Source: Patescibacteria group bacterium | GTDB taxonomy: Bacteria > Patescibacteriota > JACPGU01 | DNA: 64,000 bases | Assembly (NCBI GenBank): GCA_028718745.1 | Contig: JAQULF010000001.1 | Location: 31,666-95,665, forward strand | Direction: 5' to 3' | Shown: positions 9,289 to 59,480 of the stretch, in pieces | How the letters are laid out: every line of letters starts with the position of its first letter | How positions within the stretch are numbered: position 1 is the stretch's first letter | Made by a program: the position numbers and the translations under genes | Notes under the pieces: model-generated | What the model was told of the DNA's origin: nothing | The model's database searches: none | What the model saw: only the letters and a program-made list of their open reading frames with translations

Positions 9289-9313
9289 TAATTCTTAATG
9301 TCCGATCTTGGGT

Positions 9314-9441
9314 GGGGAAACTCCGCCCCTACAATGCGTTGGCTCCATGCTCCTGCGTGGAGCCAGTTTGTTCATTGATGTATTAAAAAATCCTTTTAAA
9401 TGCTTTATGTACATTAAGGTTCCATGCGGGAGCATGGAACC
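9314..9441. repeat. Intergenic nest of GC-rich palindromic elements related to the in-frame elements in tsaE and tlyA
   Basis: ggggaaactccgcccctacaatgcg (shares cgcccctacaa-tgc with tsaE element), gcgttggctccatgctcctgcgtggagcc (29/29 identical to tlyA element at 55384-55412), and palindrome ggttccatgcgggagcatggaacc. Confidence 0.8.
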
Positions 9442-18207: not shown

Positions 18208-18903
18208 ATGCAAAAACAAAAAATTTCACCCCGCCCATCTCGGGCGGGGCAAGAATTAACTAAAAAAGAATTATTGCAGGAAGAAAAAGATAAGGATATC
18301 TGGTGGCAGGATTCCAGAAGAAATGGCCGGAAAGCTATCGCCATCATAGTGGTGTTGGTATTTATTTTAATAGCCGTAGGATTAGTGTCGGTTCTTTTTA
18401 ATCAAAGAGAGAAATTAAGCCAAAAAGAAATTGACAAAATAAGGGCGGAGATGGAATTGGTCAAGAAAGATAACCAGGCGGAATTGGATATTTTGCAAAC
18501 GAAATTGGATGCGGCACAGAAAAAATTAGATCAGGCTGAAGAAGAAAAAAACCGGAAAGTAGTCATTGAAGGATCTTTGAGCTATCCGGGTAGTGTTGTA
18601 CCAGCAGATATGACTGTTTGCGCTCAAGATTTGAAAGACGCTAAAAATCTGGTTTGCACCAAAGAGCATATTACCGATAAAAAATATACTTATGGGGTTG
18701 GTTATAAATTGGAAGTGATACCCGGAAGTTACAATGTTTATGCTACTGTCTCCGGCTGGCAGGGCTATCAAGCTTATTACGATGAATTCGTTTCGTGCGG
18801 TATGAAATATGGCTGCACTTCTCATACTCCAATTGAGGTAAAAGCCGAAAGAGGTAAAAATCTTGACGGCATCGATCCGATTGACTGGTATAAACAATCA
18901 TAA
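18208..18903 (+). CDS. hypothetical membrane-anchored coiled-coil protein
   Basis: 231 aa; one TM then KEIDKIRAEMELVKKDNQAELDILQTKLDAAQKKLDQAEEE coiled coil. Confidence 0.5.
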   Translation: MQKQKISPRPSRAGQELTKKELLQEEKDKDIWWQDSRRNGRKAIAIIVVLVFILIAVGLVSVLFNQREKLSQKEIDKIRAEMELVKKDNQAELDILQTKLDAAQKKLDQAEEEKNRKVVIEGSLSYPGSVVPADMTVCAQDLKDAKNLVCTKEHITDKKYTYGVGYKLEVIPGSYNVYATVSGWQGYQAYYDEFVSCGMKYGCTSHTPIEVKAERGKNLDGIDPIDWYKQS

Positions 18904-19832: not shown

Positions 19833-20960
19833 GTGGCAAAAAAATCAGGAAATGAGTATGCGGATGCAGGAGTGGACTACACAAAGCTGGAAGCTTTCAA
19901 AGACATGATGATCGAAGTCGGCAAGCGCACCACGGGATTCCCGAACATTCGCAATGTATGCGTCGTTACTGACGCAATCCATGCGCACGGCGCGGTTTTC
20001 GAGTACACCGGCGATCAGCCTCATATCTGGTGTAAGACTCAGGAGGGGCTCGGAAACCTGAACTGGATCGCCGAGTGGATGCTTCAATTCGACGGCACGA
20101 AACGCAGCCGTTATGATATCCTCGGTCGCGCAGCAGCGCTTCTCATCGCGATTGATGTCATCGCGCAGGGAGCAATGCCGGTAATCTGGACGGATGAAAT
20201 CGCCGCGGGAGACAGTGACTGGTTCACCAACAAACAGAGGGCGGCCGACTATGCACAGGGATGCTTCGATGTCTGCAAGGAAATCGGCATGGCTCTGCCG
20301 GCCGGCGAATCACCCGCGCTCAAGTATCTCATCAAAGCGGAGCCGCCTGTTACAAGTGCTCCGTCATTGAGCGGATCCATAACCGGCATAATCGCTCCGA
20401 AAAGCCGGCTTATCACGGGCGCAAAATTGCGAGCAGGAGATGTGATTCTGGGCGCTCCCTCATCAGGGCTTCATTCTAACGGAATATCGCTCGTGATCAA
20501 GGAGGTCATGAAACTCTCGGATCAGTTCCTTACCAAGCTCAACGGCCAGACAGTGGGCGAGGAATGTCTCATTCCGATTCCATCGTATGTCAAATTGGTC
20601 GAAGCCCTACTCGAAAACGAAATCGAAATCCACGCCATATTGCCGGCAACCGGAGACGGCGTCGGCAAAATCGCGTTCGACAAACGCCCGTTCACCTACC
20701 GGGTCCACACATGGTGGCCAAAGATACCGCCGCTGTTCCTTTTCATGAAAGAACTGGGCGTGACCCTCGAAGGATGCCTCAAAACCTTCAACTGGGGCGC
20801 CGGAATCTACTTCTATGTGCCACGCTCAAGCGTTGACTCGGCAGTGGAAGTCGCCGCGCACGCCGGGTATGATCTGCTCGAACTCGGCCGGGTTGAAGAA
20901 GGAGAACGAAAAACCATCTTCGAGCCGGAAAGCGTCACGCTTCCCCCGCCGGGAGAATAA
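19833..20960 (+). CDS. AIR synthase-related (PurM superfamily) protein, GC-rich, GTG start
   Basis: N-terminal YADAGVDYTKLEAFK like PurM YKDAGVDI; conserved APSSGLHSNGISLV (PurM GxHSNGxSL motif); ORF much GC-richer than surroundings; RBS aaacggggg before GTG. Confidence 0.6.
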   Translation: MAKKSGNEYADAGVDYTKLEAFKDMMIEVGKRTTGFPNIRNVCVVTDAIHAHGAVFEYTGDQPHIWCKTQEGLGNLNWIAEWMLQFDGTKRSRYDILGRAAALLIAIDVIAQGAMPVIWTDEIAAGDSDWFTNKQRAADYAQGCFDVCKEIGMALPAGESPALKYLIKAEPPVTSAPSLSGSITGIIAPKSRLITGAKLRAGDVILGAPSSGLHSNGISLVIKEVMKLSDQFLTKLNGQTVGEECLIPIPSYVKLVEALLENEIEIHAILPATGDGVGKIAFDKRPFTYRVHTWWPKIPPLFLFMKELGVTLEGCLKTFNWGAGIYFYVPRSSVDSAVEVAAHAGYDLLELGRVEEGERKTIFEPESVTLPPPGE

Positions 20961-20994
20961 GAAACCCAACGAAAGTTTTCACGAGGATTCACAT

Positions 20995-21030
20995 CGCCGC
21001 CGGCCTTTGGCCGGCGGCGATTTTCTTTTC
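20995..21030 (+). terminator. Rho-independent terminator
   Basis: perfect hairpin cgccgccggcc-tttg-gccggcggcg then T-run. Confidence 0.75.
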
Positions 21031-21057
21031 CTTGATTTTCTTTCCCAATCTGCTATA

Positions 21058-21459
21058 ATGTATAGAATAATAGAAGGAGGAATTTTGGAACATCCTGATT
21101 TTTTAAATCCCAGAGACATTTTACAAAATATATTAGATGTCCTGCATTGCCCTTTTTGCGGATGCGATTATTCGGAAGAAAATGCCAGACTGAAAGCCCA
21201 ATTTGAAAAAGATTATGTGGCGCACCTGACCTGTCCCGAATGCCAAAATAGCATTATTGCCAGTTTTTCCTATAAAAATAATAGGGGGATTTTTGAACAA
21301 AGATCTCCCAATCAGAAAATGGATATGGCTATGACGGAAATGGTAAAATTCGTCGCCAAAGGAACCATTAGCGATAATGATGTTATGAATTTATATAAAG
21401 AAATGGGGGACTTTGACGGAGATTTTCAAAGAATATTCAAAATAAAATATAAAAAATAA
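21058..21459 (+). CDS. hypothetical zinc-ribbon protein
   Basis: 133 aa with CPFCGC...CPECQ; ORF track extends upstream into previous gene, start placed at first Met after terminator. Confidence 0.45.
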   Translation: MYRIIEGGILEHPDFLNPRDILQNILDVLHCPFCGCDYSEENARLKAQFEKDYVAHLTCPECQNSIIASFSYKNNRGIFEQRSPNQKMDMAMTEMVKFVAKGTISDNDVMNLYKEMGDFDGDFQRIFKIKYKK

Positions 21460-49257: not shown

Positions 49258-49761
49258 ATGCAGGACTTTATCTCCAAATCCCGTGAACAAACTCAAAAAA
49301 TCGCCACTGATTTTGCGAAAAAATTGAAAGGTGGCGAGGTTTTGTGTTTTTACGGAAATCTGGGAAGCGGAAAAACCACCTTTATTCAAGCACTAGCCAA
49401 AGCGCTGGGAGTGAAAGAAAATGTGACTAGCCCTACATTTGTTTTGATGAAACGGTATTCTCGTAGGGGCGGGGTCACCCCGCCCGAATGGAAAACAGGG
49501 CGCGGGAACCGCGCCCCTACAAATGCAAAAACATTTTTCTATCACATGGACGCCTATCGCCTCAACAGTTCCCAAGAAGCTCTCGATCTTGGCCTCGAAG
49601 AAATCTGGGGTGATAAAAATAACATCATCGCGATCGAATGGGCGGATAAAATTGTTGATATTTTACCAGAAAAAAAGATTGATTTGTGTTTTGCCTGTCC
49701 CGAGCAAAGTCGAGGGGAAAACTTAAGTGAAAATGAGAGAAAAATAAATATTTTTAATTAA
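49258..49761 (+). CDS. tsaE: tRNA threonylcarbamoyladenosine biosynthesis protein TsaE, with about 20-aa in-frame insertion
   Basis: GNLGSGKTTF P-loop, SPTF, HMDAYRL motifs of TsaE/YjeE; extra segment SRRGGVTPPEWKTGRGNRAP between SPTF and HxDxYRL. Confidence 0.8.
   Translation: MQDFISKSREQTQKIATDFAKKLKGGEVLCFYGNLGSGKTTFIQALAKALGVKENVTSPTFVLMKRYSRRGGVTPPEWKTGRGNRAPTNAKTFFYHMDAYRLNSSQEALDLGLEEIWGDKNNIIAIEWADKIVDILPEKKIDLCFACPEQSRGENLSENERKINIFN
49463..49520. repeat. GC-rich cloverleaf-like palindromic element inside tsaE
   Basis: outer inverted repeat gtaggggcg ... cgcccctac enclosing hairpins gggcggggtcaccccgccc and gggcgcgggaaccgcgccc. Confidence 0.85.
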
Positions 49762-51217: not shown

Positions 51218-51979
51218 ATGATATTGTTAATTGATACTACAACCAATCCAACTGCAATCGGACTTTATAATTATAAATTTACCCCGCAAAATGCGGGGGA
51301 TCTTAAGATTAAGATTGTCGAATCAACACCCGAGAATAACCGAAAACTGGTTGGTATTATAAAAAAATTTATAGAAAAAGAATCCGGAGTGACGCACGAT
51401 AGTGCGTCTGGTAAAAATGACAGACTGTCGTCTGTCACTCCGGAATACAACATCGAAGCTGTTGGTGTCATCAACGGCCCCGGAACCTTTACTGGAGTCA
51501 GAACCGGCGTTACAATCGCAAATGCTATGGCTTATGCGCTAAAAGCTCCTTTGTACGCCACAGACACGCTCACAGCCCAAATATCGCCAATGATAAGCGA
51601 CATGGTCTCATTAGTTTCTGCTTCAAATAGCGAGGTTTATTTTGCGCGATTTAAGAAGGGAAAAATGCAAAAAGGAATTTACCCCGTCCCGAATGGGCGG
51701 GGAATCGAACTGGTTGAAACAATGAATTTACCAAATCGATTAAATGATAGCGATATTATCGTTGGCGATTTGCAAGAAAAACATTGCGGATTGATCACAA
51801 AACAGGAGTTTGCCACAAAAAATTCCGCCGATCGAATTAAAATCCTGCTCGATCTGATTTTATGCAAAAAAATAAATCCCAAAGGGACCCCTTCGGGGCC
51901 CGCAAAACAGGTTTTACCCCTTTATATCAAAAAACCGAATATCACCCACCCTCGCTCAATCTCTTCAAGAAATAGGTGA
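51218..51979 (+). CDS. tsaB: tRNA threonylcarbamoyladenosine biosynthesis protein TsaB (YeaZ-like), with about 17-aa in-frame insertion
   Basis: MILLIDTTT, GVINGPGTFTGVRTGVTIANAMAYAL; extra VTHDSASGKNDRLSSVT relative to E. coli TsaB. Confidence 0.75.
   Translation: MILLIDTTTNPTAIGLYNYKFTPQNAGDLKIKIVESTPENNRKLVGIIKKFIEKESGVTHDSASGKNDRLSSVTPEYNIEAVGVINGPGTFTGVRTGVTIANAMAYALKAPLYATDTLTAQISPMISDMVSLVSASNSEVYFARFKKGKMQKGIYPVPNGRGIELVETMNLPNRLNDSDIIVGDLQEKHCGLITKQEFATKNSADRIKILLDLILCKKINPKGTPSGPAKQVLPLYIKKPNITHPRSISSRNR
51383..51445. repeat. GC-rich cloverleaf-like palindromic element inside tsaB
   Basis: outer IR tccggagtgac ... gtcactccgga (11/11) enclosing hairpins gacgcac-gata-gtgcgtc and gacagac-tgtc-gtctgtc. 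Confidence 0.85.
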
Positions 51980-57146: not shown

Positions 57147-57250
57147 AAATATATTATATCCGAATCGCTACAAATTTAAAATCCAAATTTTTATCAGGCT
57201 CCGCCTGATCACGCGTAGCGTAACAAAAAAGATGCGACAAATCGCATCCC

Positions 57251-57285
57251 TACCTACTACTTACTTGCTTACTACTTACTACTTA
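57251..57285. repeat. TACTACT-type heptamer tandem array abutting efp stop codon
   Basis: tacctactacttacttgcttactacttactactta. Confidence 0.8.
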
Positions 57286-58712: not shown

Positions 58713-59480
58713 TTAAAGTTCTTCGTCTTTCAATAATTCCGCCAATTTCTTCTCCAGCTGTTCTTTTCTTTCCGCTTCGGTCATTTGCTTCCTAACCGGT
58801 TTTCTCTCTTCCATTTCAGCTTCTTTGGCCGGTTTTTCCTTGTCCGCATCACTTTGTGAATCAATGTGGGCGGGTTCAACAATCTCTTCCTTAGCAATTT
58901 CTCTCTCCTTTTTATTTGTTTCAACCTCTCCCTGCTCGGGCGCAATATATTGCGCCCCTACGGGTTCGTCTGATTCTTCTTCTTGATTCTTGATTCCTAA
59001 TTCTTGATTCTCTTCTTTAATTTTCTCAACCGGAGCTTCAACCGCTTCTACACCAACTGGCGGATTTTCTTCTTTGACTTCCTCAACTTCTTTCTTTTTA
59101 GCAAACTTTCTTGGTCTTCTCGTTTCTTCTTCGTTCTTTTCCTCAAAACCTCTCTTCGGTTTATCTAGTGCTCCTTCTTCAAAGAAAGGGGATCCTTCTA
59201 TAAAATCGACGATCAAATAGCGGAGAATTTTTTCATTAAGGTTTAATTCTTTGTTTAATTTATTGGTTTCTTCAGGTTTAATATCAAAAATGAAGACATA
59301 ATAATAGCCAAAACTATTTTTGGCAATTTTATAGATCAATTTTCGCTTACCCCAAAAGACCTCTTTTTCAACCTTGCCGCCTTTGGATTCAATCAGTTTT
59401 TTGACATCTTTCGCAATATCCGCCGCTCTGTCTTCGGTGTAATTTTCACTAACAATAAACGAGATTTCGTATTTTTTCAT
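58713..59480 (-). CDS. rpsF: 30S ribosomal protein S6 with about 150-aa Glu/Lys-rich C-terminal extension
   Basis: MKKYEISFIVSENYTEDRAADIAKDVKKLIESKGGKV...WGKRKLIYKI; rpsF-ssb-rpsR order. Confidence 0.85.
   Translation of the reverse strand: MKKYEISFIVSENYTEDRAADIAKDVKKLIESKGGKVEKEVFWGKRKLIYKIAKNSFGYYYVFIFDIKPEETNKLNKELNLNEKILRYLIVDFIEGSPFFEEGALDKPKRGFEEKNEEETRRPRKFAKKKEVEEVKEENPPVGVEAVEAPVEKIKEENQELGIKNQEEESDEPVGAQYIAPEQGEVETNKKEREIAKEEIVEPAHIDSQSDADKEKPAKEAEMEERKPVRKQMTEAERKEQLEKKLAELLKDEEL

Follow-up and report, generated by a model that had tools for sequence, protein, structure and literature searches.

Within the gene tsaE of a 64-kb stretch of Patescibacteria DNA (contig JAQULF010000001.1 of assembly GCA_028718745.1; the whole stretch, of 39.4% GC, is called the window below, and positions given without a locus name are window coordinates), a GC-rich double hairpin at 49463-49520 lies in frame and, in sequence and layout, matches a head-to-head (HH) dimer (REPIN) of GTAG-tagged repetitive extragenic palindromic elements (REPs), of the type assigned to subclass 2.4 of the RayT/TnpA_REP transposases. 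We hold it probable (roughly 85%) that the element is a non-autonomous REPIN, which was moved in trans by a RayT enzyme acting on folded single-stranded DNA and which landed, and was tolerated, in a disordered loop of the TsaE protein. By comparison of sequences we document here its membership in the family, its insertion polymorphism among relatives, the presence of copies elsewhere, other genes included, and a link to RayT genes. Elements of this kind, their pairing into dimers and their presence in frame within genes have been published before; new are the host group and the decorated genes (tsaE, tsaB and rpsF), as is the observation that one and the same codon position is, among orthologs, variously empty, occupied by a single unit or filled by dimers of different sequence.

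Anatomy and folding of the double hairpin

On the plus strand the element reads GTAGGGGCGGGGTCACCCCGCCC-GAATGGAAAACA-GGGCGCGGGAACCGCGCCCCTAC. An outer repeat with inverted 9-nt ends (GTAGGGGCG...CGCCCCTAC) surrounds two hairpins (GGGCGGGGTCACCCCGCCC and GGGCGCGGGAACCGCGCCC), and each half consists of GTAG followed by a perfect 8-bp GC stem with a 3-nt loop; the halves are inverted with respect to each other and lie 12 nt apart, with three G-C pairs at the stem foot of both units and with the GTAG ends pointing outward. Unit 1 (49463..49485, plus strand; GTAG + GGGCGGGG-TCA-CCCCGCCC) is translated in frame a as VGAGSPRP, the inverted unit 2 (49498..49520, minus strand; GTAG + GGGCGCGG-TTC-CCGCGCCC) encodes GRGNRAPT, and between them stands an unpaired, A-rich 12-nt spacer (49486..49497, plus strand) that is diverged or shortened in orthologs with the same arms. 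The bounds of the insert, set by comparison with an ortholog that has an empty site (L329) and with other orthologs, are 49462..49521 (plus strand): 60 stop-free nucleotides in frame, made up of the dimer and one base on each side, and encoding RRGGVTPPEWKTGRGNRAPT.

With 73% GC over 59 nt, the element is the densest GC stretch of the window, in which perfect GC-rich hairpins are about 50-fold in excess (11 vs 0.2 expected). The RNA fold of a 76-nt region reaches -44.3 kcal/mol, as compared to -25.9 +/- 3.0 kcal/mol for shuffled sequences (z = -6.2; 0/200 shuffles equal). The original prediction had described a cloverleaf-like element; its outer inverted repeat and two hairpins are present exactly as described, whereas the minimum-energy fold of the 58-mer turned out to be one long hairpin, formed by the pairing of one unit with the other (-40.1 kcal/mol with RNA and -23.1 kcal/mol with DNA parameters). 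The cloverleaf-like three-way fold (-36.1 kcal/mol for RNA, -19.8 for DNA) and a pair of separate hairpins (-35.6 and -22.5 kcal/mol, respectively) are close alternatives to it; the cloverleaf is just one among several near-isoenergetic folds. A scan of the window with Rfam 15 at the gathering score gave no match at 49463-49520 and found only a tmRNA and two tRNAs.

The host gene and its loop

The open reading frame (ORF) at 49258..49761 (plus strand, 167 aa) continues uninterrupted through the element and is assigned to TsaE (Pfam PF02367, 1.6e-34; 140 residues on 118 profile positions), in agreement with the in-frame location first read from the sequence. Its product is 100% identical to NCBI MDD5731361.1, and its nearest named relatives belong to the candidate phyla radiation (CPR)/Patescibacteria, one of them being labelled candidate division CPR3. 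The element falls between the SPTF and HMDAYRL motifs. The roughly 20 extra residues that had been claimed between SPTF and HxDxYRL are confirmed by the solved TsaE structures in the PDB, in which the loop counts 4 residues vs 24 in the window protein (query residues 67-92 face chain residues 71-76, and the HMMER alignment splits there). In the AlphaFold model (mean predicted local distance difference test score, pLDDT, of 80), residues ~70-91 form a coil with a pLDDT of ~49 between the strands 64-69 and 92-98, and the insert is accordingly modelled as lengthening a predicted disordered beta-hairpin loop by ~20 residues. The loop can be regarded as generally permissive, because the spacing between SPTF and HxDxYR varies from 10 to 45 aa across 120 homologs. 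Its insert-encoded part is rich in Arg, Gly and Pro, and the peptides GGVTPPEWK or TGRGNRAPTNAK would mark read-through translation of the insert.

The same gene has a second variable site at 49693-49716, where a 24-nt insert (GCCTGTCCCGAGCAAAGTCGAGGG, peptide ACPEQSRG) with weak hairpin potential only is seen in ~6/40 homologs and is missing from the others; it maps to a second low-confidence loop of the model (residues 148-155). In more distant CPR TsaE proteins (among P0041-P0120), many of the longer loops at the REP site have short peptide repeats (RIKN-KES-RIKN, KIQN...KIQN, EIGN...EIRN) on either side of the extra residues, which suggests duplication-type indels at that loop.

Different REP dimers at one orthologous site

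We compared 40 TsaE homologs, with 53-85% identity when the loop is left aside; for ten ortholog loci, DNA could be retrieved through exact-protein look-ups, and the locus L246 was the only close relative among the metagenome-contig matches listed. In relatives that are 70-85% identical, the site shows presence/absence polymorphism, comprising an empty site, a single REP, at least four dimer types and an AT-rich filler. It is empty in L329 (TAT AAGGCAAAGAACAAGATTGAA TTT) and occupied by a single REP unit, read as VGA..., in L328. Type A is the dimer of the window, L002 and L003; type B (GGGCGGGGCTTGCCCTCGCCC / GGGCAACCGCAAGGGTTGCCC) is found in L004, and its relative type B', a pair that has decayed in part, in L330; type C (GGGCGCAATTCATTGCGCCC / GGGCGTGATAAACCACGCCC) occurs in L005 and L326, and a further distinct pair (type D) in L327. 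In L246 (10200-10265) an A-rich (AAATCAAAA)n-like low-complexity tract stands instead of a REP, and further empty sites were found in the TsaE homologs P0021, P0029, P0034 and P0038. The segment is thus not universal among TsaE orthologs; this polymorphism and the copies found elsewhere both support the original prediction that we are dealing with a mobile repeat family and not with an idiosyncratic loop.

A REP-type peptide is present at the TsaE loop in ~16 of the 40 closest homologs, in at least four sequence types, with the pairing kept in all of them. Every tsaE dimer starts with GTAGGGG and finishes with CCCCTAC, and HH heterodimers, their units 6-20 nt apart, make up the elements of the window, L002-L005, L326, L327 and L330, while the frame in which a unit is read varies between orthologs (RRG... 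vs VGA...). All 16 distinct units of this clade have GTAG directly at the stem foot and GGG/CCC at the stem bottom; GGGCG is kept almost without change at stem positions 1-5, substitutions at positions 6-8 compensate each other across the stem, and 122/128 stem pairs are Watson-Crick (5 are G-T). On a neighbour-joining tree of the 40 proteins (loop masked) the insert types are scattered, the ~120 aa being too poorly resolved for a count of gains.

Copies at other loci of the window and of its relatives

Altogether the window contains 5 REP units, vs 0.5 expected. A single unit (GTAGGGGCGCAATATATTGCGCCC; 58938..58961, minus strand) lies in frame in rpsF, where it encodes the peptide VGAQYIAP within the acidic C-terminal tail of ribosomal protein S6 (ORF 58713-59480, minus strand; Pfam Ribosomal_S6, 4.2e-24). 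A degenerate unit (GTAGGGGCGGAGTTTCCCCACCC; 9310..9332, minus strand) is intergenic, and its two mismatches on the minus strand are G-U pairs on the plus strand; it is here, at 9324-9337, that the motif CGCCCCTACAATGC recurs in an intergenic nest, as had been noticed earlier. A possible family member, GTAGGGATGCGA-TTTG-TCGCATCT followed by a terminator-like T run (57230..57253, minus strand), stands between two minus-strand genes and is a weak candidate, its stem not being of the GGGCG type. Outside the window, a dimer in frame in the tsaB gene of L330 (9468-9525; peptide VGVGLAPAQIKGQPQGLPLR) is ~53/58 identical to the type-B dimer in tsaE of L004, and L246 (9954-10525) has a REP unit just upstream of the tsaE start codon and an HH dimer immediately past the stop codon.

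The S6 protein of the window has a C-terminal extension of ~160 residues, acidic and of low complexity, which holds the single unit. Beside the degenerate unit, the nest contains two more hairpins, unrelated ones, at 9341-9364 and 9418-9441 (GGCTCCA...TGGAGCC and GGTTCCATGC-GGGA-GCATGGAACC).

Spread across phyla and residence in RayT genes

The exact 23-mer of unit 1 was found in more than 120 stretches of representative genomes from many phyla, among the matches listed; its hosts include Chloroflexota, Desulfobaccales, Geobacteraceae, Planctomycetota, Poribacteria, Omnitrophota, Armatimonadota and one Patescibacteria metagenome-assembled genome (MAG), and the arm of unit 1 is also carried by the complete chromosomes OZ244825.1 and OY781964.1. 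Together with the copies in rpsF, in the intergenic nest and in tsaB of L330, these matches answer for the presence of the element elsewhere. The 129 listed occurrences of the arm comprise 53 single double-foot palindromes (GTAGGGGCGGGGTCACCCCGCCCCTAC, GTAG...CTAC) and 28 dimers. In all 28 dimers the partner arms are of the GGGCGNGG-NNA-CCNCGCCC kind, which includes unit 2 of the window, and such unit-2-type partners stand beside unit 1 in Geobacteraceae, Planctomycetia, Omnitrophota and Chloroflexi. Furthermore, the gapped pattern of the outer repeat occurs in more than 120 viral-contig stretches (at least 174 dimer matches, nearly all with two internal hairpins), in which some dimers are nested (e.g. 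GTAGGGGCGGCT|GTAGGGGCGGCTTC...).

RayT ORFs with the motifs NH[VLF]H...WQRNY...YIxNNP, interrupted by REP peptides such as VGAGSPRPY, were recovered from L190, L195, L204, L213 and L244 by a looser motif pattern built from published motifs, which for RayT of subclass 2.4 are NH[IFV]H, WQ and YIxNNP (a stricter HUH-Y1 pattern matched none). Pfam Y1_Tnp scored 30.9 and 28.1 bits on RayT ORFs, and JGI gives homologs of the L204 protein the name 'REP element-mobilizing transposase RayT'. The peptide VGAGSPRP is present in 39/120 RayT homologs, among which is P0236 of a Patescibacteria MAG, and in many homologs it is paired as VGAGSPRP...GRGNRAPT, the heterodimer of the window tsaE. At the DNA level, a RayT remnant (L165) has a dimer whose arms match those in tsaE of L002 and L003 at 46/46 positions. 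We argue that the arm pair is identical across phyla because the same pair resides in frame in the RayT gene, between the HuH and Tyr motifs, and is thereby carried along with the transposase; being common to RayT genes of distant phyla, it offers a handy marker for the horizontal spread of the transposase family. The same dimer was also observed in frame in an ORF of a Planctomycetia MAG (L148, minus strand, from ~7865 of the reverse complement; peptide VGAGSPRPSFSQGAETAPLR), an ORF that is PurQ-like as judged by eye from a sequence motif only.

Comparison with known systems

REPs are recognised by their signature, a GC hairpin with GTAG at its foot, which the element shares. The superfamily of GTAG-tagged REPs consists of 20-40 bp stem-loops (6-13 bp stem, short loop), has been reported from eight phyla, usually in tens to hundreds of copies per genome, and includes HH dimers with the GTAG ends outside, which encode 20-30 aa in frame when intragenic (Di Nocera 2013, PMC3733652). 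The terminal GTAG, the size of the stem-loops (units of 23 nt) and the HH arrangement of the window element agree with this description. REPs of TnpA_REP subclass 2.4 are canonical long REPs with three G-C pairs at the stem bottom, or have a double foot; they occur in frame within tnpA_REP genes, between HuH and Tyr, and are patchily distributed across phyla (Quentin 2018, PMC6006769). The stem foot of three G-C pairs, the double-foot forms and, in other genomes, the REPs inside RayT genes correspond to this subclass, as do the short loops, the inverted pairing, the patchy occurrence among phyla and the in-frame insertion, the transposase gene included. In contrast to published GTAG REP/RayT cases, the host of the window element is a CPR/Patescibacteria member, with few copies seen and no RayT found in the window, and sister lineages differ in the dimer that occupies the loop of one and the same gene. 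No paper linking REPs with CPR/Patescibacteria was found in the literature searched, and a full-text search for the literal strings GTAGGGGC / GCCCCTAC returned only unrelated primer and promoter matches.

The REP/BIME elements (bacterial interspersed mosaic elements) of E. coli and their TnpA_REP resemble the window element in the GTAG guide next to a hairpin and in the inverted pairs (Ton-Hoang 2012; PMC3479197; PMC8266576), and as folded single-stranded DNA they are recognised by an HUH-Y1 enzyme (Messing 2012, PMC3479197; Corneloup 2021, PMC8266576). They differ in having bulged, imperfect stems, in belonging to subclass 2.2 and in being extragenic, whereas the stems of the window units are perfect and of the GGGCG type; binding and cleavage of the folded single-stranded unit by RayT are published for the E. 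coli, S. maltophilia and Marinomonas pairs only (PMC8266576). Closer in their location are the intragenic REP dimers reported in Opitutus terrae and in genes of DNA replication and repair, uvrA among others (Di Nocera 2013, PMC3733652), which likewise add 20-30 residues in frame to housekeeping proteins, in loops thought to be tolerant. The present cases depart from them in that genes of threonylcarbamoyladenosine (t6A) synthesis (tsaE of the window and, for L330, tsaB) and rpsF are affected, and in that the genome leaves hardly any room between genes.

A further likeness is to the Rickettsia palindromic elements (RPE), which Ogata et al. reportedly described in 2000 as selfish DNA in protein-coding genes: these too are palindromic repeats which, in a reduced and AT-rich genome, lie in frame within essential genes and are translated as surface loops. 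RPE-4 and RPE-6 have been placed among the CGTC-tagged REPs (Di Nocera 2013, PMC3733652). Membership of the RPE family was ruled out for our units, which carry GTAG and not CGTC, so that the likeness is one of behaviour; the separation from the CGTC-tagged or longer (RPE-1) elements, which also have other hosts, is one by tag and not by sequence comparison. The GC clusters and double-hairpin elements of fungal mitochondria are GC-rich, scattered in an AT-rich genome and sometimes in frame. Their hosts and sequences are unrelated, no RayT-kind transposase is known for them, and they may serve as an analogy only.

Origin of the insert and alternative explanations

In the origin that we favour, an HUH-Y1 transposase would recognise the hairpin and the GTAG foot of folded single-stranded DNA, cut it and re-join it elsewhere; a REPIN copy would have inserted into the DNA for the tip of the TsaE beta-hairpin, between SPTF and HxDxYR, and would be translated into a disordered loop of ~20 residues. 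The insert survives in tsaE because it is 60 nt long, its frame avoids the TAG of GTAG, and the loop tolerates extra residues. As the reading G|TAG is a stop, two of the three frames are open for each foot, and the copies use those two (RRG... and VGA...). We think that the insert is a passenger without a role in t6A synthesis, and we infer translation of the segment, its neutrality and a RayT as the agent that moved the window copy. Transposition into a tolerant loop would extend the REP/RayT system to a CPR (Patescibacteria) genome, the element being notable mainly for its host, a CPR bacterium with a tiny genome, and it points to refuges for REPs where intergenic DNA is nearly nil, namely disordered loops of essential proteins (TsaE, TsaB, the S6 tail). 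Moreover, it would account for odd insertions rich in Arg, Gly and Pro that are able to mislead the alignment, phylogeny and structure prediction of metagenome-derived proteins, and would show, as a map made by nature, which loops of the t6A machinery tolerate insertions.

Several observations weigh against this explanation. The copy number in the window is low (5 units), and neither the 64-kb window, which is less than a tenth of the genome, nor ~67 kb of related CPR loci revealed a RayT gene by motif scans or by tblastn with five RayTs, the sole tblastn matches being REP-encoded peptides. In the three type-A orthologs the arms are 45-46/46 identical, with invariant third codon positions, as against 77-82% for the flanking coding DNA (third positions 55-60%), and the spacers differ in sequence and length (P = 5e-6 to 9e-4 for the arms as compared to the rate of the flanks). 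A vertically inherited neutral relic should have decayed; since the arms outlast their flanks, recent re-insertion, conversion or selection in place is needed. Moreover, the same loop is filled by different dimers in many relatives, for which random insertion alone is insufficient.

The last two observations leave some room, on what we regard as a minority view, for the tip of the TsaE beta-hairpin being a re-usable docking site for REPs, and/or for the arms being kept since the hairpin acts in the tsaE mRNA. At a docking site, the GTAG/CTAC feet of one REPIN would be preferred by RayT, and REPINs would replace each other at one codon within the CPR clade. If either were true, the in-gene REPs of minimal genomes would be more than passive passengers, and the locus would be a natural system in which to watch REP turnover at an orthologous site. 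A closely related and, in our estimate, somewhat less likely explanation accepts the REP origin and supposes that the element is now kept for a function in place (ribosome pausing, transcript stability or tuning of tsaE) or as a GTAG/CTAC landing pad. Besides the conservation of the arms beyond flanks and spacers, it is favoured by the recurrence of pairing-competent REP-type inserts of several types at this one loop, by the nested units of other contigs, and by the G-U pairs of some units, which hint at structure at the RNA level, as argued likewise by Di Nocera 2013 (PMC3733652). A function in place is difficult to reconcile with close relatives that lack a REP altogether (the empty sites of L329, P0021, P0029, P0034 and P0038, and the filler of L246), with the same units at unrelated places (the rpsF tail, tsaB, intergenic DNA, other phyla), and with the different unit frames of orthologs, which leave nothing conserved at the protein level.

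That the loop is a lineage-specific one, selected for its amino acids and palindromic by coincidence, appears very improbable. Its basic, Arg/Gly-rich composition and its position between two functional motifs would suit a contact with tRNA or TsaD, and TsaE works beside tRNA-binding partners; against this stand the wholly different peptides of the dimer types, the reading of units in different frames, and the invariant third codon positions of the arms, which protein-level selection leaves unexplained, together with the occurrence of the same DNA in unrelated genes and between genes and a model that predicts disorder. Still further down, we give almost no weight to a palindrome formed on the spot by replication template switching or slippage, without transposition: the same genome does have other in-frame hairpin insertions without GTAG (four in tsaB), and the loop is indel-prone, with repeat-like fillers in relatives, but 23-nt-identical arms in many phyla and inside RayT genes contradict such an origin for the tsaE element, and both the GTAG feet and the GGGCG stems mark it as a family member. 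An artefact of sequencing or assembly, such as a chimeric join or a palindrome resembling an adapter, which an exact GC-rich palindrome common to many MAGs of unrelated phyla might bring to mind, is just as implausible in view of the intact reading frame and downstream TsaE motifs, of the same element type at the same site between diverged flanks in other samples (L002, ERR4183325; L003, SRR22388171), and of the arm in the two complete chromosomes.

Other hairpin insertions and an unusual block in the window

The genes that come after tsaE encode an NTP-transferase, a NUDIX protein and a member of the TsaB/TsaD family. In the last of these (tsaB/TsaD-family ORF 51218-51979), comparison with two orthologs of 74-79% identity brings out four extra in-frame hairpin segments, none of them with a GTAG foot: a 21-nt insert, TTTA+CCCCGCAAAATGCGGGG, at 51278-51298; a 62-nt palindrome, TCCGGAGTGAC...GTCACTCCGGA, at 51383-51444 (-37.7 kcal/mol, z = -7.3), for which neither the window nor viral contigs gave a further copy; the hairpin CCCCGTCCCGAATGGGCGGGG within a 27-nt insert at 51672-51698; and the 21-nt insert CCCaaaGGGaCCCCttcgGGGG at 51877-51897. 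This genome seems liable to gain in-frame palindromes of kinds other than REPs as well.

Hairpins of the form ATTT(C)A + CCCCG...CGGGG stand at 18229-18249, 51282-51298 and 51682-51702, on the plus strand and in frame in ORFs (two of them in tsaB), and these three copies may represent a second small family of tagged hairpins in the window. The hairpins at 18229 and 51682 were also considered as the centres of decayed REP dimers, an assignment that was rejected, their flanks having neither GTAG nor outer arms. Lastly, a block at ~19833-21459 (ORFs 19833-20960 and 20815-21459), which has 55% GC within the 39% GC window and a 13-bp GC hairpin at its end (20993-21021), may be foreign DNA.

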